Assembly (NCBI GenBank): GCA_004211905.1
Contig: SHBP01000001.1
Coordinates: forward strand, 317,589 to 381,588
Length of the DNA: 64,000 bases
Direction: 5' to 3'
From: SAR92 clade bacterium
GTDB lineage: Bacteria > Pseudomonadota > Gammaproteobacteria > Pseudomonadales > Porticoccaceae
The notes below the pieces were generated by a model. It was given only the letters and a program-made list of their open reading frames with translations. It ran no database searches and was not told the origin of the DNA. The number at the start of each line of letters is the position of its first letter. Within the stretch, counting starts at the first letter, position 1. The position numbers were made by a program, and so were the translations under genes. Positions 5,330 to 64,000 of the stretch are shown piece after piece.

Positions 5330-5536
5330 TTATTTGTATTGAAATATATTCTCTAGTGGCTCTTGAAATACGTCTGATATCTTAAACGCTACCTCTAGAG
5401 ATGGCGAGTACTTATCTTTTTCAATGGCAATAATCGTCTGACGTGTAACGCCTACTTTTTCGGCTAAAGTTTGCTGAGACATTTCACCTGCCTCAAATCG
5501 TAGTTTTCGAATATTATTACTTAAACTTTTAGACAA
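5330..5536 (-). CDS. XRE/Cro-C1 HTH transcriptional regulator
   Basis: NNIRKLR..MSQQTLAEKVGVTRQTIIAIEKDKYSPSLEVAFKIS; probable TTG start 1 nt after the upstream TAG. Confidence 0.85.
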   Translation of the reverse strand: MSKSLSNNIRKLRFEAGEMSQQTLAEKVGVTRQTIIAIEKDKYSPSLEVAFKISDVFQEPLENIFQYK

Positions 5537-5537
5537 G

Positions 5538-5984
5538 CTATACACCTTTTCGATAGTGATACAGTTGAGTGCCAAAACGAATCACTTCAGCTAAAACAAA
5601 GAATAAAAGTAAAAAATGAAACATACCATAGGGAGTCGTGAGCATAAGATGATTATCAAATCGAGCATCTAGTAAAATCTGCACCATTGAAACCCAAATG
5701 CAAACTGCCAAGAACCCATAACTGTATCTAGATGAAGTCTTTTCAATAAGCTTGTCTCTCTCATCTTCTAGTTGCGATTTATTCTTTATTGCCAAGAATG
5801 ACTGAATGATAGCTTCTAAAATAATAAACCCAACAACAAGAATAATGACCTCAATAAATCCAGGTAATTCTGGATTTAATGGCAAGCTAGAAAAAGCGCC
5901 ATATAAATACCACCCAAAAAACAATAAAGTAGCACCCAACGAGGCAAGTAAGCTTTTTTCCTTGTACGACATATCCATGATCAA
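5538..5984 (-). CDS. Four-helix membrane protein paired with XRE regulator
   Basis: Hydrophobic segments with central EDERDKLIE motif typical of XRE-associated (DUF2178-like) membrane proteins. Confidence 0.65.
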   Translation of the reverse strand: MIMDMSYKEKSLLASLGATLLFFGWYLYGAFSSLPLNPELPGFIEVIILVVGFIILEAIIQSFLAIKNKSQLEDERDKLIEKTSSRYSYGFLAVCIWVSMVQILLDARFDNHLMLTTPYGMFHFLLLFFVLAEVIRFGTQLYHYRKGV

Positions 5985-5990
5985 TCCTTT

Positions 5991-6032
5991 AAGTTAAATA
6001 ATTTTTACTTAATGTACAAAATATTTAACATT
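5991..6032. promoter_or_regulatory. Tandem imperfect palindromes, candidate XRE operators
   Basis: AAGTTAAATAATTTTTACTT followed by AATGTACAAAATATTTAACATT immediately upstream of the 5984 start. Confidence 0.4.
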
Positions 6033-10827: not shown

Positions 10828-11029
10828 TATTTTTCAATATTATATTCAACTTACTACCACTCATTTGTTGTGAACGCTTTGTTTGTAAAAAAATTCTTAT
10901 CAAAATAATAACAACGAACTTTTAGGTTTCTTAGAGCAACACTCAATCCAGGTTTTTGGCAAGGGTGCGCAGAAATTCGATGGTCTCTTTGATTGACCGC
11001 ACCGGTGTTTTGCAGGCAGACACGGCGGA

Positions 11030-13042
11030 CTATTCCGCCGCGTCCTCCTTCAGATAGCGATCGAACCAATCGATAGTACGCTGCAAGGCGTCAATCTGGT
11101 TTTCTCGCTTTTGCCAACCGTGTCCTTCCTCGACGTAGATCTTAGAGTCGACCCTCTTGCCGGCCTTTTGCAAATACTCGACCACTTGCTCGGCCTCATA
11201 GGCGGGGACGCGAAGGTCGTTCTGACCGTGCAGCACAAGCAGCGGGGCCTTCACCTGGTCAAGATAAGTCAGCGGGCTGGTTCGATCATAGACTTCGGGA
11301 TGTGTCTCAGGCGATCCCAGCAGCCCGCGCTGATATTCGCGTAGGGCCGGCGAGCCTCGTTCCCACATGCTGCGCCAGTTGACGATGCCGTATAGCTCGA
11401 CCGATGCTGCCCAGAAATCGGGCATACGTCCAACTGCGATAAGGCTCATGTAGCCGCCATAGGACCCACCGGTTATACCGACCTTCTTCAGGTCACCATA
11501 ACCCGACGCGGCAACAAATTTTGCAGCCCATGCCTCGTCTTCCAGGTCGCGTCCGCCCAGATCGTAGCGGTTGGCCTCCATGAAGGCACGGCCATATCCG
11601 GTCGATCCGCGAACATTTGGGGCGATCACGATGTAGCCACGTGACGCGAGCGCCACTGCCGTCGCATCGAATGTATCGAAGGTCTGGCCGGTCGGTCCGC
11701 CGTGAGCGATGACAACGATTGGGGTGCTAGCATCCCGCTTGAGATTATAGGGCATCCACAGGATCGCGCTGATAACGGTACCGTCGGCGCTCTTGTAGCT
11801 GACGGTCTGGCTCGTCGGCAGATTGACCTCGTTCACGCTAGCAAGGCCAAGCCGGGTTATCCGACGGTTCACTCCGGTTGCGAGTTCGTGTGTCCAGTAA
11901 TCGAATGGGACGCTGGCCGAGGAATGCGGGAAAAGGATGTATTTCCCGTCAGGTGAGAACTGCGGTAAGTCGAACCAGGACGAAGCGGTCGTGCCTTTGG
12001 GAAGTTTTAGCGCGCGCGCCTTTCCCGCTTCGATGTCGTAGGCCAGCATTTCAATACTGCCATCGACATTGTTGATCACCAGCGCGGTCTTGCCGTCAGG
12101 CGAAATCCGACCGGCCTCTTGCGGCCATTGGCTTGGCACCATGAGACGGCGCTCGCCGGTCTTCAGATCGACAAGCACTGCCTGATTCACGCCATCAGGC
12201 GCCTCACTTGTCACCGACAAGAATCGATTGTCACTCGAAAATCCGACTGCCACGTCCAACTTGCCCTCGCCAGTCGCAATCATGCTTTTCTCGCCGGTCG
12301 CCACGTCGATCATCCAGATCGCGCCCGTCAGGATATCACCGCGATTAGCAATCAGCTTTGTACCGTCAGCGTTAAAACCGACCGGTGACCAGTAGATACC
12401 GGGGTCTTTGTCGCGGGTAAGTTGCCGGACCTCGCGGGTTGCAAGATCCAGCAGCGCGAGGTCGAAAGTGGGTGAAGCGGCTTCGCGGCGCACGAATGCG
12501 AGCACTTTGCTGTCAGGTGAAAAAACATACCTACCGGTTTCGGAAACGTCATCGGTCGATGTCAGATTGACCGCCTCACCACCACTGCCCGGCATCGCAA
12601 AGATGTCAAAAAGCTCGTTGCCACCGACATCGGATGCGTAAAGGATTGTCTTCCCGTCAGGCGATACCGTCGGAAAAAACGCTCTGTTTTCCGACTGATG
12701 CAGCTGCTGCGGAAACCCGCCTGCATGCGGGAACCGCCACAAATTCATCCGCCCCGTCAGATCGGACGAAAACACAACGTCATTCCCGTCCGGCGTCCAG
12801 GTAGCAAACCAGCTGGTTCGCAAAGAGAGCACATCCTCGACCGAAATCGGTTTGGTATCTGGGTTGGGGACCGAGTCAAGGCTGCCAGGATCGGTCAGTT
12901 CCCGCTCGGGGACTCCCGTCAATACCGCAACGCCCGGCCGGTTCGGATCAAGCGGGGCCTCCTGTGCGAGAAGCGGAGAGCAGAGAAAGCCCAGGGCCGC
13001 GATGGTCGCGACGAGATGCCGAAAAAAAGCTACGTTAAACAT
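11030..13042 (-). CDS. S9-family peptidase (beta-propeller plus alpha/beta hydrolase), secreted
   Basis: Signal peptide, PD40-like repeats, HGGP, PNVRGSTGYG, GGSYGG, HGQND, EGHG; GC-rich. Confidence 0.9.
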   Translation of the reverse strand: MFNVAFFRHLVATIAALGFLCSPLLAQEAPLDPNRPGVAVLTGVPERELTDPGSLDSVPNPDTKPISVEDVLSLRTSWFATWTPDGNDVVFSSDLTGRMNLWRFPHAGGFPQQLHQSENRAFFPTVSPDGKTILYASDVGGNELFDIFAMPGSGGEAVNLTSTDDVSETGRYVFSPDSKVLAFVRREAASPTFDLALLDLATREVRQLTRDKDPGIYWSPVGFNADGTKLIANRGDILTGAIWMIDVATGEKSMIATGEGKLDVAVGFSSDNRFLSVTSEAPDGVNQAVLVDLKTGERRLMVPSQWPQEAGRISPDGKTALVINNVDGSIEMLAYDIEAGKARALKLPKGTTASSWFDLPQFSPDGKYILFPHSSASVPFDYWTHELATGVNRRITRLGLASVNEVNLPTSQTVSYKSADGTVISAILWMPYNLKRDASTPIVVIAHGGPTGQTFDTFDATAVALASRGYIVIAPNVRGSTGYGRAFMEANRYDLGGRDLEDEAWAAKFVAASGYGDLKKVGITGGSYGGYMSLIAVGRMPDFWAASVELYGIVNWRSMWERGSPALREYQRGLLGSPETHPEVYDRTSPLTYLDQVKAPLLVLHGQNDLRVPAYEAEQVVEYLQKAGKRVDSKIYVEEGHGWQKRENQIDALQRTIDWFDRYLKEDAAE

Positions 13043-13094
13043 TTTCTAACCTTTCTTTATTACCTCGAAATCTGCCTACCAGATCGCCCACCAG

Positions 13095-15293
13095 CTAATT
13101 CGCAGGTGTGCGGGGATCGAACCCGTCCATCAGCTTCTGGAGGAGGTAGACGGTCTGGAGCGCCGAATTGAAGGCTCGGCCCTCGTCATTTACCGCCATG
13201 CCGTGCCCCCCTTCGCGCGCCTCGTAGAACAGCGCCGGGTGCCCTTGGGCCATAAGCCGTGCGGCCATCTTGCGCGCATGACCAGGATGGACGCGGTCAT
13301 CGCGCGTGGACGTCATCAGCAGCATTTCCGGATAGTCACCGTCGGGCTCGATATTCTGGTACGGCGAATAGCGCAGCAGCGGCTCGGCCTCGGTGGGTAT
13401 CTCGGGATTACCGTACTCCGGCATCCAGCTCGCGCCGGCCAGCAGCTTGTGGAACCGCGCCATGTCTAGCAGCGGGACAAGCGAGATCGAAGCGCCGAAG
13501 AGATCCGGTCGCTGGGTCGCGAGTACGCCCGCGGTCAACCCTCCGTTCGAGCCACCGACGAATCCGATCCGTCCCGCCCGCGACAGGCCGCGCGCAATCA
13601 GATCCTCGGCCACCGCAGCGAAGTCGTCATAGGCGATCTGGCGCGTGGCACCACGCGCGGCGTTGTGCCAGGCCGGGCCGTATTCGCCTCCGCCGCGGAC
13701 GTTTGGAAGGACGAAGCGCCCGCCGCGTTCGAGCCAGATCTGATGCATAGGCCCGATGTATGGGACTTCGAAGCTGGGTAGCATGGGAATGCCGAACGCG
13801 CCATACCCGTACATCAGCGTTGGAGCGGCAGCATCCCACCCGCCTTTTTTGCCGACAACGAAATAGGGAACACGGGCCCCATCCTGAGTTTCGACGAAGA
13901 ACTGCTTGGTTTCGAAACCCTCAAGGTCAACCGCAGCCTCGGCCTCCTGCACCTTGGCGAGTTTACCCGCCTGAGAGAGCGCGAACATCGTCGGTACCGT
14001 GGTGAAATTCTCGAATTTGAGGAGCGCGCTGTCTTCCGAGGGATCCATGCTTGTCAGCAGCGTCAGCGTGCCGCCCTGCCGACCAGCGGGAACATTCACG
14101 TTATCGACCTGCCATTGACCATCCGCACCGCGCCGTGCGCGTTTCAGCGTCGAAACGACATTGTCCAACACGACGAGGTATGCACTGGTATCGAGGATCG
14201 CCGGTGGGCTAGCAAGCGGAAGCGCTTCGCTCGCATCGGGCGTGAAAACCGTGCGATAGGTGTCCCCATCCACATCACCCGCGAGGATCCTGGGAAGGTT
14301 TGCCGCGATGATGGAGCCTGCACTGAACACTTTGCCGCCAACATCGAAATCCGTGTCCAGCCGTAACAGCAGTTCATTGCCGATTCCGGTCAGACCCATA
14401 AAGGACGCCATGAGTTCCACCGGAAGGGGTAGGGTCTCGGGCGGCTGGCCGGACGCGACGCGCAGAACGGTCAGATCCGTAAAGCTTCGGGCTGCCAATA
14501 CCAGAAGCTCGCGTTGCGTATTGGTCTGAGCCAGGAAGGGCGCGAGTAGGAGATGATCGGAGGGAATGCTGTGCAGCACTTCCGCCTCGGAGACCCCGGT
14601 GCCGCGATGCCATTGTCGCAGAATGCGCGGATAGCCCGAAGTCGTTGCCTCGTCGGGTTCGAGCACGATGGAGATGGCCAGCGTATTCTCATCAACCCAG
14701 GCGATCATCTGTCGGGCAAGCGGTGTCCGGAACCCGTCCGGAACAAATTTCTTGGCCGCAAGATCGAATTCGCGCACGCTCACGGCATCGCTTCCGCCAT
14801 CGGACAACGGAATGAGCGCTTTCGCGCCGTCAGGCGAAAACCGGATCATCGGCGCATTTACATACCAGTTATGGCCTTCGGCTTCCGCCAATGCGTCGAT
14901 GTCGACAAGTGTCTCCCAGGCGGCCTCCCCAGCACCGAACGACGCCGTTCGGTTGCGCTGGAGGAGGCCTCTTGGATGGTCGGGCTCCTGAGCGATCCGA
15001 TAGACGAAGCCACTTGCCTGCGTAAGCATGTGCATCTTGGGAAGGCGGCCTTCGCTCTGATAGCTCGCCAAATATTCGGCCTTGAGCTGGTCGAAACGCG
15101 GGTCCGCCGCCAGTCGGGCAGCCGTGCGTTCGGACTGTTCTTCGGTCCAGCCAAGCGCACGATCCCCTTCGATCTCTTCCAGCCACAGATACGGATCTGC
15201 GGCATCAGATGCTAGGACAGAAAACGAATAGGTAATGCCTATTATCACACTTGCTCGGATTTTATTTCGAATAGTCAGAATATTTGGCATCAC
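13095..15293 (-). CDS. Prolyl oligopeptidase (S9A), secreted
   Basis: DPYLWLEE, NVRGGGEYGPAWH, GGSNGGL, EYGNP, DDRVHPGHARK, GGHG; GC-rich except the first ~30 codons. Confidence 0.9.
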   Translation of the reverse strand: MMPNILTIRNKIRASVIIGITYSFSVLASDAADPYLWLEEIEGDRALGWTEEQSERTAARLAADPRFDQLKAEYLASYQSEGRLPKMHMLTQASGFVYRIAQEPDHPRGLLQRNRTASFGAGEAAWETLVDIDALAEAEGHNWYVNAPMIRFSPDGAKALIPLSDGGSDAVSVREFDLAAKKFVPDGFRTPLARQMIAWVDENTLAISIVLEPDEATTSGYPRILRQWHRGTGVSEAEVLHSIPSDHLLLAPFLAQTNTQRELLVLAARSFTDLTVLRVASGQPPETLPLPVELMASFMGLTGIGNELLLRLDTDFDVGGKVFSAGSIIAANLPRILAGDVDGDTYRTVFTPDASEALPLASPPAILDTSAYLVVLDNVVSTLKRARRGADGQWQVDNVNVPAGRQGGTLTLLTSMDPSEDSALLKFENFTTVPTMFALSQAGKLAKVQEAEAAVDLEGFETKQFFVETQDGARVPYFVVGKKGGWDAAAPTLMYGYGAFGIPMLPSFEVPYIGPMHQIWLERGGRFVLPNVRGGGEYGPAWHNAARGATRQIAYDDFAAVAEDLIARGLSRAGRIGFVGGSNGGLTAGVLATQRPDLFGASISLVPLLDMARFHKLLAGASWMPEYGNPEIPTEAEPLLRYSPYQNIEPDGDYPEMLLMTSTRDDRVHPGHARKMAARLMAQGHPALFYEAREGGHGMAVNDEGRAFNSALQTVYLLQKLMDGFDPRTPAN

Positions 15294-15337
15294 AGTTTCC
15301 CTCGATCTGAAAACTTGAAAATCTTTAAGAGCTATAA

Positions 15338-19700: not shown

Positions 19701-19907
19701 TCATCCAATAATTTTTTTCAGCTCCTCTAAATGACGCTTGAAAGATTTTCTTCCCTCAGAGGTTAAGGATACCCAGGTCCGCTGGCGGGTAAATTCTGTC
19801 TTTTTAATCAGTTGCACATAGCTTGCATCTTCCAATACCTTTAAATGCTTTGAAAGCACTGAATCACTTACTTCAAGTTGTTCTTTAATAATCTGAAACT
19901 CCAGTTC
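19701..19907 (-). pseudogene. Winged-helix regulator remnant (5'-truncated, frameshifted)
   Basis: ELEFQIIKEQLEVSDSVLSKHLKVLEDASYVQLIKK...RTWVSLTSEGRK, then a frameshift near 19745 into FKRHLEELKKIIG*; no N-terminus. Confidence 0.7.
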
Positions 19908-19973: not shown

Positions 19974-20063
19974 TTATTCCCACTCAATAGTTGCAGATTT
20001 ACAGAGCCCTATAAACGAAGGGCTACAAGCACGAAAATAAAAGCGTGTAACTTTCGTGTAACT
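19974..20063 (-). repeat. guaA-3'-end-like attachment site, copy 1
   Basis: Minus strand TCT GCA ACT ATT GAG TGG GAA TAA (SATIEWE*); AGCCCT-ATAAACGA-AGGGCT palindrome; CGTGTAACT twice (20044, 20055). Confidence 0.8.
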
Positions 20064-20196
20064 CTTACCTTCTATTTTTGTTCTGCCCATTAAACCAATT
20101 CCTTTGTTTTATCAGTTATTTAACGCATTATAACTTACAAACATTGTAACATTCCTTAAAGAACTAATTAAATGCTTAATAATAATTAATTTATGT

Positions 20197-21158: not shown

Positions 21159-21353
21159 CATATGTTTCTATATTGGAAAGTAACAGATTCACTTTTGTGG
21201 ATTATACGCTAGTTATGAATCGTAATAGTCGAGTTTGTTTGTAACAAAGCTTGTAACCGCAAAGAAGGAATGGCCTCTAAAGAGGTGATTGTAACTGACA
21301 TGGCCTTTTACTAAACTTCACCCCTCTCTTTTCAATAGCCATGTCAACACATT

Positions 21354-60324: not shown

Positions 60325-61503
60325 ATGAGTACACAGCAATCACACCGCGAAGGTAGAATCATTCATGACGCAGACAGTCACATAATCGAATATCCTGGGT
60401 GGCTGGAGAGTTATTCCAGCGAATACGTTAAAGCCAACCTTAAGCCCAGCCGATTAACGACAGACAATCCATTATTTAAGCGAATTATAGATCAGGCCGA
60501 TAAGCGTCTGGCAGGCAATGATCCGGAGCTGACAGAAACGTTGAAATCGAACATCTTCGGCGCGCGGGAAAAGCTCAATATGTGGGCAGCCTTCGGAGCG
60601 ACCAAGAAGGCAGAAAGAAGTGAATCACTGGATATAATGGGTGTTAGCTCGCAGCTGATCTTTCCCAGCATCGCGATGGCGCGTTTTTCTCGCACCCCTG
60701 ATATGGACTTGATGTACGGCGGCGCGGACGCCTTGAATCGTGGCATGGCAGACTTTTGTGCTGACGATCCTCGCATGCTGGCAGTGGGCCATGTACCCCT
60801 TAATGATCCATTGCGCGCACAGGATTGTCTTAAAAAAGCGCTGAAGCTTGGCATTCGCTCAATCTGGGTCATTGCAGATTCAGTCGAAGGCCGCGCCCCT
60901 TCTCATCTGGACTACGACCCTCTCTGGGCGATGATGGAGGAAGCCGGAGTGGCTGTCACCCTGCACATCGGTAGTGGGGTAAATATGCCTCCGGAGTATA
61001 TGAACACCGGTGAAGAGCGTGAGCTGAAAGGGAACCCATTCAATATAGAAAGCACCAAAGCTCATGACATACCTGTATTGCACCACGCCATAGAGCGCTG
61101 GCTAACCTGCATGATCTACCATGGTGTTCTGGAGCGCTTTCCGCGCCTCAAAGTCGGCATTATCGAATTGGGCGCCAATTGGCTTCCCACCACACTCGCC
61201 AATTTAGACATTGGCCGTTTTCATTTGGGGAAGTTTGACACGAGCTTAGACAAGCTTTCACTAAAACCATCAGAGTATATTCACAGACAGGTTCGCGTCG
61301 CGCCCTTGCATATGGAAGACGCCGGTTGGATTTTACGCAATGTTGGCAAAGACATTCTAATGTTCAACACAGACTATCCTCACCCCGAGGGTGGCAGCGA
61401 CCCCTTCGGTGACTTTGAACGTAGCCTCAACGCCGTAGACGCTACCCCAGAGGAATTGGACAACTTCTACAGTAAGAACTTCGAATTTTATATGGGCCTG
61501 TAG
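60325..61503 (+). CDS. Amidohydrolase_2-family metallohydrolase
   Basis: IHDADSH, LHIGSG, FNTDYPHPEG; close paralog of 21429-22616. Confidence 0.9.
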   Translation: MSTQQSHREGRIIHDADSHIIEYPGWLESYSSEYVKANLKPSRLTTDNPLFKRIIDQADKRLAGNDPELTETLKSNIFGAREKLNMWAAFGATKKAERSESLDIMGVSSQLIFPSIAMARFSRTPDMDLMYGGADALNRGMADFCADDPRMLAVGHVPLNDPLRAQDCLKKALKLGIRSIWVIADSVEGRAPSHLDYDPLWAMMEEAGVAVTLHIGSGVNMPPEYMNTGEERELKGNPFNIESTKAHDIPVLHHAIERWLTCMIYHGVLERFPRLKVGIIELGANWLPTTLANLDIGRFHLGKFDTSLDKLSLKPSEYIHRQVRVAPLHMEDAGWILRNVGKDILMFNTDYPHPEGGSDPFGDFERSLNAVDATPEELDNFYSKNFEFYMGL

Positions 61504-61514
61504 TACTTCCCTAA

Positions 61515-61549
61515 TCGCGCGCGGCCAGCAGAGACTGGTCGCCGCGCGA
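61515..61549. terminator. GC-rich hairpin between convergent genes
   Basis: TCGCGCGCGGCCAG-CAGAGA-CTGGTCGCCGCGCGA. Confidence 0.5.
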
Positions 61550-61557
61550 ATTCACTG

Positions 61558-62151
61558 TCAGGTTTTAAAGGCCTCTACACCGTTCAGAATAAAACTGACG
61601 GTATCCTCCACCATTTTTTTCCGGCTACCACCATATCTGGCATAGTGCCTAGCAGCTTCGATAGAAGCACCGGATGCTAGGGCGATGACATGACCAGCTT
61701 GGGAGGGTGTAAGATGGTACATCTCTTTCACAGTAGCCACCAGAAACTGCCCAGTTTTGCGTAAATCATCTTTCTGTCTCTCTTTGTTTACTTCTTGTAG
61801 TTCCGGCTGCGCGCCTAAAATATGAGCAATTCCGCCCAGAGTAAACTGTTTGAAATTGAGGTTAACAAAAACTCTCACCACATCCTCAAAATTTTCTGCT
61901 ACAGATAACTCCTCTCTGACACTAAGGGCATAACTCTCATACTCTCTCGCCCAAAGATCCTGTAAAAGCTCCAGCCGAGTATCAAAGTACTTGTATATCA
62001 ATGGATTGCTAACACCAGCTTCGAAAGCTAGGGTGTCCATAGTGAAACCAGAAAAGCCCTTCTTCAAAAGCAGTTCTCTGGCAGTATCCAGCAATTGATT
62101 TCGACGGCCCTCAGGAGAAAGGCGAGTGCGCTTATTGCCACTCATAATCAT
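61558..62151 (-). CDS. TetR/AcrR-family regulator
   Basis: RTRLSPEGRRNQLLDTA...FTMDTLA.EAGVSNPLIYKYF. Confidence 0.9.
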   Translation of the reverse strand: MIMSGNKRTRLSPEGRRNQLLDTARELLLKKGFSGFTMDTLAFEAGVSNPLIYKYFDTRLELLQDLWAREYESYALSVREELSVAENFEDVVRVFVNLNFKQFTLGGIAHILGAQPELQEVNKERQKDDLRKTGQFLVATVKEMYHLTPSQAGHVIALASGASIEAARHYARYGGSRKKMVEDTVSFILNGVEAFKT

Positions 62152-62159
62152 GTTTCCTT

Positions 62160-62258
62160 TTAATTTAATAAGCTTTGGTTATTAGCAACGAATGCTATAA
62201 AAGAATATCCTATTGCGCCTAATGTTAGAAAAATTAGATACTTTTTTTGTCTTTTCAT
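62160..62258 (-). pseudogene. 32-codon signal-peptide-like stub starting 1 nt after att copy 2
   Basis: ...GAA TAA A ATG; MKRQKKYLIFLTLGAIGYSFIAFVANNQSLLN*. Confidence 0.5.
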
Positions 62259-62259
62259 T

Positions 62260-62344
62260 TTATTCCCACTCAATAGTAGACGCTTCTGAAACCCTTATAA
62301 AAAGACGGTTACAGCCAGATAGAAAGTAGTTTGTCACGACTGTT
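62260..62344 (-). repeat. guaA-3'-end-like attachment site, copy 2
   Basis: Minus strand TCT ACT ATT GAG TGG GAA TAA (STIEWE*); degenerate ATAAA-centred palindrome; AAAGTAGTTTGTCACGACTGTT at 62323. Confidence 0.85.
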
Positions 62345-62391
62345 TTATTATTTTGTCTACCATAACCCCAATTGCTCCAGTTTCACTGGTT

Positions 62392-63822
62392 TTAGTTGCT
62401 TGATTCAATAGATATTATAGAATAAAGAGATGCATCAATTCCTGCCTTGTAATCAGCAAAGGTAAAAGGCACCGGTATGTCAGGTTCAAGAGATCCTACA
62501 GAGGTAGGATATTTAAAATCTGTCCAATAACATTGGATCCAATCTTCGCAACCATATAGTTGATCATGCAATCCTCTTGCAGCTGTCATTCCAATACCTG
62601 AATTAGGAAGAATAAAAGCATTGGTCTCCCCCCAACTCAAAGGACTATCTCCAATTCTACGACCCACAATAATTAGTTCATTATGTAGAGCTTCTTTAAG
62701 AAACCCTAGTGAGCTAATACCTGCTGAGAAAGTTTCATGACCAGTTATGGCGTAAACCCTTGAGCTCTCTGGTATTAGCTCTGGGATCTCAAACATTAGA
62801 TCAACTGTTTTTGTGTAGTCACCCCCACCATTAAAACGTTGATCAAAAATTAATACTTCTGGTTTGAATGAAGAAATTTCTTGTCTGATCTTTTTATTAA
62901 ATTCTGAAATACTCATTTGCTGGCCATCGTTATTTTGGCGGTATTGAATATAAAGCATTCCAAGATCACTGAGTCGACTTAATTGAAACTCATCATTCGT
63001 TTTTAAATAAAGTGGATCATAGTTTGTATCATTAGAAAAACTGATAAATTGCTTGTTATGATCATGATCGAATTGAGGCATTAACCACACCCAAGGAGAT
63101 TGTATGTGCCTATCCTTTTGAGGAGGTATTGCTTTAATTTGAAACGCTTCAACACTGCCTTCATTATTAATGGTCGTCACATCCAAGTTAAGCTTATTGT
63201 CTATAAATCCCAGCTCAAAAAGGAATGCTGTGTTTTGAATTAAGAATGGTAAGGCGTATGCAACAAAACCACTATCCTCGCCACCATAATATCCTCTGAA
63301 AGCATCTTTAATTACCTCAATATCGGCATTACCAATATGAGTAACTCTAGCCCCTAGCAAGCTTGCATATTCGTTAGTTGTAGCAACTATATGATAGCCG
63401 TCATCAAACCAATATCCCTGATAAGGCATAGATGGGTAGCGCTTGGCCCTTGAACCATTCCAAACATTGGAATGACCGTTTTCTCCTAGTGCAACTATTT
63501 CGCTTATTGCCAGCTCAAATCTCGCTTGAGAGAGTTTATCTACCTCCTTCCTCAATTTATTAATTTTACTTAAAGCTATACCTCTTGCTCTAAAATGAAA
63601 GCTTCGATCATAACCTCTTACATAATTTTCAAAATACTCTAAATCCTGCAAGCGGGCTTCTTTCTCATTATTTGGAGTAGGAAAATTTGCATTAGGTGCA
63701 TCAGGATAAAACAGCAGGTTTCTTGTTAACTCGGGAATTCCAATGAAACCAATCAACAAAAATATCGCTAAAGTAAAAATTAAAGCAATATTCTTTTTAC
63801 TTATTTTTGAATTCTTATTCAA
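62392..63822 (-). CDS. S41-family peptidase-like exported protein
   Basis: N-terminal TM/signal, D.H-like NGHS motif, IFDQRFNGGGD, TFSAG, IIVG...G; TTG start 1 nt after the att-core TAA. Confidence 0.75.
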   Translation of the reverse strand: MNKNSKISKKNIALIFTLAIFLLIGFIGIPELTRNLLFYPDAPNANFPTPNNEKEARLQDLEYFENYVRGYDRSFHFRARGIALSKINKLRKEVDKLSQARFELAISEIVALGENGHSNVWNGSRAKRYPSMPYQGYWFDDGYHIVATTNEYASLLGARVTHIGNADIEVIKDAFRGYYGGEDSGFVAYALPFLIQNTAFLFELGFIDNKLNLDVTTINNEGSVEAFQIKAIPPQKDRHIQSPWVWLMPQFDHDHNKQFISFSNDTNYDPLYLKTNDEFQLSRLSDLGMLYIQYRQNNDGQQMSISEFNKKIRQEISSFKPEVLIFDQRFNGGGDYTKTVDLMFEIPELIPESSRVYAITGHETFSAGISSLGFLKEALHNELIIVGRRIGDSPLSWGETNAFILPNSGIGMTAARGLHDQLYGCEDWIQCYWTDFKYPTSVGSLEPDIPVPFTFADYKAGIDASLYSIISIESSN

Positions 63823-63823
63823 T

Positions 63824-63908
63824 TTATTCCCACTCCATAGCTTGAAAACCTGTAACCCCTATAAACGAGGGGTTACAGAGAGATAAAAAGTAGTTTGTCA
63901 CGACTGTT
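63824..63908 (-). repeat. guaA-3'-end-like attachment site, copy 3
   Basis: Minus strand GCT ATG GAG TGG GAA TAA; perfect palindrome CTGTAACCCCT-ATAAACG-AGGGGTTACAG (63850-63878); AAAGTAGTTTGTCACGACTGTT at 63887. Confidence 0.85.
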
Positions 63909-63946
63909 CTGTGCTTCCTGAATCGCAGAGTTGTTTTCAGTCATGC

Positions 63947-64000
63947 TCATACCCATTGGGAATCAGCCACAGTGGCAATTATCGCATCCGCTGCTCGCTC
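63947..64000 (-). CDS. 3' end of an ORF entering from outside the window (possibly a tyrosine integrase)
   Basis: ERAADAIIATVADSQWV*; only 17 residues visible. Confidence 0.25.
   Translation of the reverse strand, partial: ERAADAIIATVADSQWV

Follow-up and report, generated by a model that had tools for sequence, protein, structure and literature searches.

An S41-like peptidase gene as a probable cassette of a guaA-anchored array in a SAR92 clade bacterium

A stretch of 64,000 nucleotides from a SAR92 clade bacterium (Porticoccaceae; contig SHBP01000001.1, positions 317,589 to 381,588; hereafter the window) contains a short unit with a single gene for an S41-like peptidase. The unit lies between two copies of a module that consists of an arm and a core, the core being a copy of the 3' end of guaA. 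We propose that this unit is probably one cassette of an array that is anchored at the 3' end of guaA and was built by guaA-specific integrases. The array would begin with guaA and its core, followed by an amine-oxidase gene with arm and core, the S41-like gene with arm and core, and a 42-kb catabolic unit with arm and core. At the level of sequence comparison, the interpretation as a single-gene cassette, which an initial annotation of this stretch had put forward, is supported by alternative junctions at the cores and by many similar units in other genomes and metagenomes.

Organization of the S41 unit

All coordinates refer to the window, and features are read along the minus strand, which is the direction of guaA (Table 1). 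The module is formed by an arm of about 70-100 bp and a core of 17-18 bp, ACTATTGAGTGGGAATAA. The core codes for the C-terminus of guaA, (A)TIEWE, which is conserved in GMP synthase, and includes the stop codon. The exact core, TTATTCCCACTC, occurs at 19974, 62260 and 63824; with up to one mismatch allowed, there are four matches in the window (0.23 expected by chance). The cores at 62260-62277, 63824-63841 and 19974-19991 all contain GAGTGGGAATAA. A 20-mer, AGTAGTTTGTCACGACTGTT, recurs at 62325 and 63889. A profile built from 93 independent metagenome arms matched the window at three places only (62261-62352, 63824-63918 and 19974-20070), and it detected no further degenerate modules in the 42-kb unit or in the left 20 kb. 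Scans of the window for tRNA and tmRNA genes and for Rfam families gave no match, so that the module is neither an RNA-gene target nor a known structured RNA.

Between module copies 2 and 3 there is only one open reading frame (ORF) of at least 50 aa. Its TTG start, which is backed by the N-terminal alignment with homologs, lies 1 nt past the TAA of core 3, and its stop is separated by 47 nt from the 20-mer of arm 2. Along the minus strand, the right end of the window thus reads amine-oxidase 3' end, arm 3, core 3, S41 ORF, arm 2, core 2, a 33-aa ORF and a TetR gene. The GC content of the S41 ORF is 36.2%, compared to 47.9% in the TetR-MFS neighbors and 46.8% in the 42-kb unit. The initial annotation, made from the sequence alone, had described a lone ORF more AT-rich than its neighbors; the ORF listing and the GC values agree with both statements, and its coordinates and the two spacings were all correct.

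Arm 3 carries the 20-mer AACAGTCGTGACAAACTACT (63889-63908, minus strand) and a 10-bp inverted repeat, CTGTAACCCC-N9-GGGGTTACAG (63850-63878), with a fold energy of -18.6 kcal/mol (z = -4.6). In arm 2, the 20-mer at 62325-62344 is accompanied by an imperfect inverted repeat at about 62286-62315, while arm 1, next to core 1 (19974-19991), shows the repeats GAGTTACACG and AAGTTACACG together with an inverted repeat. The motif GTTACA(A/G)/GTGACAAAC is present in two direct copies in most arms of related loci and in one copy in arms 2 and 3 of the window, followed by the inverted pair. The GTTACA-type repeats are putative arm-type binding sites of an integrase. We also considered the inverted repeat as an attC-like or terminator hairpin and rejected this as the main reading: averaged over the arms, folding is weak (mean z = -1.3), both halves of the stem are further copies of the GTTACA-type motif found in the direct repeats, and a T-run follows the stem only in type II arms.

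The same cassettes in other contexts

The S41 cassette was found in five settings, with copies that are 91-97% identical. In four of them, the junction coincides with the core; in the fifth, the complete genome of Porticoccaceae nBUS_09, it is located immediately outside the arm. Five different upstream neighbors were observed, namely guaA itself, the amine-oxidase cassette, a cassette for a 183-aa membrane protein and two other arms.

The junction of guaA with the S41 cassette was recovered from a contig of a run labeled as metatranscriptomic, which matches the window up to 63835 and continues into sequence reverse-translating to SKPPATIEWE-stop. In that population, guaA is therefore fused directly to the S41 cassette at the core, and the sequence of this guaA is not the same as in close relatives of the window. 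The junction of amine oxidase and S41 is present in the window and in contigs L003 and L008. The nBUS_09 genome (CP179212.1) is 97% identical to 61342-63912 of the window and then diverges; its array consists of guaA, a 2.9-kb unit, an 822-bp unit (245-aa membrane protein), a 668-bp unit (the 183-aa membrane protein), the S41 unit and TetR. In two further contigs (L001 and L002), the S41 gene (91-94% protein identity) stands behind a core, each time with a different upstream arm. Across metagenome and metatranscriptome contigs, loose ends or alternative junctions fall within core 3 at 63831, 63835 and 63840, and within core 2 at 62260, 62264, 62273 and 62277. The initial annotation had proposed to look in related genomes for clean presence or absence of the unit at the core; clean alternative junctions were found there with guaA, with the amine oxidase and with two further arms.

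The amine-oxidase cassette also changes its position. It is 99% identical over 1.6 kb in contig L078, where it is the first unit behind guaA, and in L082, where it is the fifth unit behind another arm, and GAGTGGGAGTAA/GCGTCAC is the exact point of both junctions. L078 and L008 have different guaA sequences and hence different hosts. In both L078 and L082, the amine-oxidase cassette is followed by sequence other than S41. One joint that skips 1570 (run X27) was considered as a precise deletion of the S41 unit and rejected, as it represents another arm variant of the amine-oxidase cassette, of the L078 type, with partial matches to both arm 2 and arm 3.

Distribution of the module

Using the pattern ACAAACTAC-N50-58-GAGTGGGARTR, which joins the arm motif to the core, we identified the module on more than 120 metagenome contigs at least, nearly all of them marine. 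Among the matches listed, together with the window-related contigs and genome-derived loci, 79 loci carry at least two cores. The following counts likewise refer to the matches listed. Inter-core units (n = 122) have a median length of 1023 bp, with the 10th to 90th percentiles spanning 221-2726 bp. A single ORF of at least 70 aa is present in 58 of the 97 units between 300 and 3500 bp, in line with the suggestion of the initial annotation that other single genes might be flanked by the same module. ORFs are oriented with guaA in 105 cases and against it in 26.

Arrays hold up to 5-6 units, mostly of 0.2-3 kb. A common architecture is seen in at least four arm families that differ in sequence: there are two direct repeats (GTTACAAAG/GTTACAAAC or GTGACAAAC/ATGACAAAC), the distance from repeat to GAGTGGGA is fixed at 54 nt, and an inverted repeat lies in between. 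Of 217 distinct post-core flanks, 27 have an ORF of at least 50 aa whose start is no more than about 5 nt away from the core, most commonly in the form TAA-N-ATG, the same stop-N-start layout as in the S41 gene and the 33-aa ORF. The true guaA ends in the core sequence in three contigs (L008, L013 and L015), and in a Cellvibrionales metagenome-assembled genome (MAG), guaA is followed by two units of 550 and 528 bp.

Recombinases at guaA-linked loci

Directly after cores or guaA, some of the related loci encode a family of tyrosine integrases of 411-445 aa (PF00589). One of these loci (L086) contains a 7278-bp element in tandem duplication. The first gene of the element lies about 165 bp past the core and encodes a tyrosine recombinase of 426 aa (PF00589); it is followed, on the opposite strand, by a gene for a tyrosine recombinase of 189 aa. 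Integrase genes start about 160-290 bp past cores in four loci (L086, L065, L052 and L130). A profile of these four integrases retrieved 374 proteins at E <= 1e-10, including proteins from Luminiphilus, Pseudomonadales and Methylophaga, and the two contexts examined (L140 and L141) both show the order guaB-guaA-integrase-small recombinase. A small tyrosine recombinase of 159-218 aa, XerC/XerD-like and on the opposite strand, regularly follows the large integrase (L086, L065, L140 and L141).

None of the marine integrases reaches a curated NCBIfam cutoff. The integron integrase model TIGR02249 gave no match for the large integrases and 49.7 bits for the small recombinase, compared to a cutoff of 265; judged by these scores, the marine integrase is not an integron integrase. 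The initial annotation had also referred to a neighboring integrase. Neither an integrase nor guaA was located in the window: Pfam scans of nearly all ORFs of at least 120 aa and tblastn with the marine integrase family detected no integrase in the window, the candidate family being found in related loci only, and guaA is not within the 64 kb. Contig L008 opens inside guaA (...VSSKPPATIEWE-stop) and continues with a 460-aa amine-oxidase gene, arm and core, a 476-aa gene, arm and core, and TetR, and L003 has guaA, amine oxidase, arm and core, and S41 in the same order. From the order in L008, guaA is placed some 1.5 kb to the right of the window, and by these related contigs two single-gene units, not one, would separate guaA from the TetR unit.

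We envisage that the arrays are built by such tyrosine integrases specific for the 3' end of guaA, which would recombine core with core. A unit that lies between two cores and lacks an integrase would then need an integrase from elsewhere, and could be excised, reinserted or transferred only by an integrase acting in trans.

The cargo protein and its expression

The cargo protein has a weak match of its own to the S41 peptidase family (PF03572; E = 0.0023, 18 bits, below the cutoff of 24). No NCBIfam model matched it, and no PDB sequence did so at E <= 1. Homologs with 22-32% identity to the cargo protein carry PF03572, and the motifs D-x-R-x-N-G-G-G and T-F-S-A are invariant or nearly so in an alignment of 11 sequences. 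Invariant positions are D327, R329, N331, G333, G334, T364, S366 and H117, and nearly invariant ones G332, D335, F365 and A367. This chain of homologs and the motifs hold despite the weak score and point to a distant homolog of S41-family serine peptidases, so that the label "S41-like" given initially appears right. The N-terminus contains a basic and a hydrophobic segment, and the protein is therefore probably membrane-anchored or exported.

Homologs at a greater distance (53-66% identity) occupy ordinary chromosomal contexts without cores (L016, 57%, beside a tRNA gene; L017, 66%; L139, 53%). This fits a chromosomal origin of the cargo gene and does not refute its interpretation as a cassette. 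In a further contig (L138, 76% identity), the sequence GAGTGACAAAAAATTG upstream of the TTG start matches GAGTGGGAATAAATTG of the window at 13 of 16 positions; it could be a decayed core or a chance resemblance, and we regard it as doubtful.

The initial annotation had noted that the unit leaves no room for a promoter. With a gap of 1 nt between core and start, and with no sigma-70-like or terminator-like site on the minus strand from the upstream stop to the S41 start, we come to the same result. The S41 cassette would thus be transcribed by read-through from guaA or from upstream cassettes. The S41 gene is covered by marine metatranscriptome contigs, and a 707-nt RNA-seq contig spans the upstream gene of the nBUS_09 type, the arm and the core and extends into S41, which fits read-through transcription. 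A start 1 nt past the stop of the core makes a core-borne translation signal or a restart possible. The recurrent spacing suggests that the purine-rich core may serve as a weak ribosome-binding site for the S41 start; alternatively, translation may restart after termination where S41 sits directly behind guaA.

Neighboring genes and the rest of the window

Table 1. Features of the S41 unit and its surroundings in the 64-kb window
Feature	Position	Strand	Description
S41-like unit	62260-63823	-	1.56 kb, lies between module copies 2 and 3
Cargo ORF	62392-63822	-	476 aa, TTG start; predicted distant homolog of S41-family serine peptidases
Spacer, cargo ORF stop to arm 2	62345-62391	-	47 nt
Core 3	63824-63841	-	GCTATGGAGTGGGAATAA, copy of the last codons and stop of guaA; contains GAGTGGGA, the crossover motif of the GIsul2 type
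Arm 3	63842-63908	-	Distal arm of the upstream cassette; profile E = 4.4e-19
Arm 2	62278-62344	-	Distal arm of the S41 cassette itself; profile E = 7.5e-21
Core 2	62260-62277	-	ACTATTGAGTGGGAATAA; exact starting point of contigs L005 and L006
Core 1 and arm 1	19974-20070	-	More diverged copy, closes the 42-kb inter-core unit; profile E = 2.3e-9
Amine-oxidase gene, 3' end	63947-64000	-	Last 54 nt of the window, ends ...ADSQWV-stop; 460 aa and PF01593 in related contigs
33-aa ORF ("leader")	62158-62259	-	ATG 1 nt past core 2; first segment of the next unit

The amine-oxidase gene at the right edge is the cargo of the cassette upstream of S41. An exact look-up of the 195-aa TetR protein returned 13 metagenome contigs, while exact look-ups of the S41 ORF and of the 197-aa TetR ORF returned no match, probably due to a differing start call. 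Four contigs (L003, L005, L006 and L010) begin exactly at a core; such ends arise where assembly graphs branch at that point.

The 33-aa leader segment is located directly after guaA in nBUS_09 (L013, 6804-6920; 95% identical). There, it runs into SnoaL-like and beta-lactamase-like genes and not into TetR, which indicates a second, non-core breakpoint at about 62160.

Between 20071 and 62259, the window holds one 42-kb inter-core unit with neither an internal module nor an integrase. It encodes three Amidohydro_2 and two MFS_2 proteins, three TetR regulators, a Rieske oxygenase, glyoxalase-type dioxygenases, GH2, ABC exporters, a TonB receptor and DUF3604, so that catabolic and transport genes dominate. 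It resembles a very large "cassette" or an island whose integrase has been lost. Past core 1, a truncated winged-helix regulator gene with an in-frame stop (19703-19903) shares 85% identity with an intact gene of 94 aa from unit A of the nBUS_09 array (L013, 4173-4457), a hint that the array once reached further. An intergenic segment of about 160 nt from nBUS_09 (L013, 5008-5164), which holds GTTACAAAC-like motifs, matches the window in two parts, at 10908-10988 (96% over 81 nt) and at 21165-21247 (93% over 83 nt).

A segment at 11000-15300 with 58-62% GC, amid sequence of 37-47% GC, encodes two S9-family peptidases and was probably acquired separately by horizontal transfer. A gene for a 148-aa DUF2178-like membrane protein (window 5330-6031) has two homologs with 77-80% nucleotide identity on a Gammaproteobacteria MAG contig (L014, 1-408 and 3626-4333), one of them immediately upstream of an arm and core module.

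Discussion

Several observations weigh against a cassette that is moved by guaA-specific integrases. In the available sequence, only 4 of about 130 array loci, the window not among them, contain an integrase. In intact elements, the arm motif recurs in inverted orientation a few bp past the core; the S41 cassette lacks this copy, and its excision could be impaired. Neither a circular form nor a precise empty site of the S41 unit was seen. Downstream, every assembled contig that reaches far enough has the same TetR island, other neighbors being hinted at by loose ends only. Breakpoints at the outer arm edges (62388, 63912 and 63946) would also be expected from homologous recombination, and the metatranscriptome libraries that cover the cassette boundary may include DNA. 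Finally, a tblastn search of 72,556 plasmids with the marine integrase returned a single Azospirillum match (22.6%), so that kinship with the integrase of the resistance island GIsul2, discussed below, is unproven.

The breakpoints at the arm edges raise the question of whether the cassettes are shuffled by homologous recombination. Arms, cores and guaA would then serve as portable homology for RecA-dependent exchange after DNA uptake, and the nearby integrases would belong to unrelated islands that use the same site. Arms and cores indeed offer about 100 bp that are 80-97% identical between cassettes, homology between the window and nBUS_09 does not break off at the core but at 63912, immediately beyond the 20-mer, the other loose ends coincide with arm or gene edges as well, and most arrays are without an integrase. 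We nevertheless consider this explanation unlikely. Many junctions lie inside the core with unrelated flanks on either side (guaA to S41, guaA versus arm to amine oxidase, type II arm to 33-aa leader), and 18 bp is a poor RecA substrate. Integrases immediately adjoin cores. The architecture with its 54-nt spacing and inverted pair is kept across arm families that differ in sequence, which points to a site recognized by a protein. Part of the shuffling may be due to homologous recombination between shared arms, with which the breakpoints at 62388, 63912 and 63946 are compatible.

Alternatively, the S41 unit could be an inert relic of a larger integrase-bearing island that integrated in tandem at guaA and then lost all but one cargo gene, comparable to a cis-mobilizable element or the degenerate remnant of an island; the unit would no longer be mobile, and the 1-nt spacing would be accidental. 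For tandem integration and decay at a single att site there is ample documentation, e.g., from Prochlorococcus islands (bioRxiv 10.1101/2020.12.28.424599). The arm motif missing just after the core and the constant downstream neighbor in assembled contigs would agree with such a history. The relic explanation is, however, difficult to reconcile with one and the same cassette behind at least five upstream neighbors, with a fused guaA that is not that of close relatives, and with an amine-oxidase cassette that changes its array position through exact core junctions. A recurring stop-N-start layout in unrelated cassettes and the strong co-orientation of ORFs with guaA are also unexpected from random decay. 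We regard a relic as improbable, slightly more so than shuffling by homologous recombination.

Integron cassette arrays (for example the Vibrio VCRs, with uniform attC sites) consist of small, mostly single-ORF, promoterless and co-oriented units. The resemblance to integron cassettes that had been noticed in the initial annotation is functional only: the S41 unit consists of one promoterless ORF, behind which lies an imperfect inverted repeat, and it belongs to an array of units of this kind. The resemblance does not extend to attC or IntI. The unit boundaries read ACTATTGAGTGGGAATAA and carry GAGTGGGAATAA instead of GTTRRRY, and CTGTAACCCC...GGGGTTACAG lies 16 nt from the core, unlike the GTTRRRY/RYYYAAC pair. 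No IntI is present in the window, and the associated integrases score far below integron-integrase cutoffs. The anchor of the array is guaA instead of attI and Pc. We consider it highly improbable that the unit is a true gene cassette of an integron, its attC recombined by IntI. The two kinds of array share a recombination site with an inverted repeat at the end of each unit, a variable order of units beside a fixed anchor, and expression from upstream. They differ in the anchor, which is the stop region of a housekeeping gene here and attI with Pc in integrons, and in the site, which combines an arm of a double-stranded type with a 17-bp identity core, whereas the site of integrons is an attC that folds and carries GTTRRRY. 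IntI is not the integrase here, and some units are large (42 kb).

By analogy, the closest known mechanism is that of GIsul2. This island integrates at the 3' end of guaA with the core 5'-GAGTGGGA-3', and a CR2-sul2 unit that has att sites at both ends but no integrase is excised and integrated by the integrase of the island (PMC9376610). Since CR2-sul2 is moved by the GIsul2 integrase, mobilization in trans is plausible for the S41 unit as well. Both systems show insertion at the guaA 3' end, a duplicated core with GAGTGGGA and several att copies in one locus. GIsul2, however, is one 15-kb island with its own integrase, found in enterobacteria or Acinetobacter, whereas the loci described here are arrays of mini-units with conserved arms of about 100 bp in marine Cellvibrionales and Porticoccaceae, in which most ORFs point with guaA and many start right past the core.

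Tycheposon islands of Prochlorococcus grow by tandem accretion at one att site and leave target-gene remnants (bioRxiv 10.1101/2020.12.28.424599). As in these islands and in integrative and conjugative elements (ICEs) with their tandem accretion and cis-mobilizable elements, repeated 3'-end integration would push older units outward and leave partial target repeats and integrase-less cargo. Their targets are tRNA genes, or fda in streptococci, and not guaA, and their remnants are irregular, in contrast to the uniform mini-cassettes with conserved arms and starts that abut the core. The literature found on guaA-linked integration comprises only GIsul2-type islands, ICEs as well as IMEs (integrative mobilizable elements), and one guaA-integrating phage. 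A description of guaA-linked cassette arrays in marine bacteria was not found in the literature searched, which did not cover subscription journals.

A wider proposal, to which we give even chances, is that marine Gammaproteobacteria possess an integron-like capture system. The stop region of guaA would provide the site of insertion and also the transcription, and a dedicated guaA-specific tyrosine integrase, often paired with a small recombinase, would stack and reshuffle promoterless mini-cassettes, each made of an ORF, an arm of about 100 bp and a 17-bp core. Many of the ORFs, with starts 1-5 nt past the core, would borrow its translation signals, and the S41 gene, with its contexts numbering at least five, would be one of the circulating genes. 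The proposed hosts are Porticoccaceae and SAR92-like bacteria, other Cellvibrionales, and Luminiphilus and relatives.

If driven by integrases, these arrays would represent a second, independently evolved route to ordered arrays of promoterless single-gene cassettes, one that relies on an att site of the classical kind, with arm and core, at the end of a gene that is essential and well expressed, and not on a folded attC. The case of GIsul2, in which an integrase-less unit with guaA cores is mobilized, would be extended from one resistance island to a widespread natural system. The arm of about 100 bp, the core and the integrase together form a candidate for a compact site-specific insertion system. 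Such a system would account for a hypervariable hotspot at which metagenome assemblies break in abundant Gammaproteobacteria of coastal and pelagic waters, and it would offer a handle on the circulation of small flexible genes, such as those for peptidases, amine oxidases and membrane proteins, in these bacteria.

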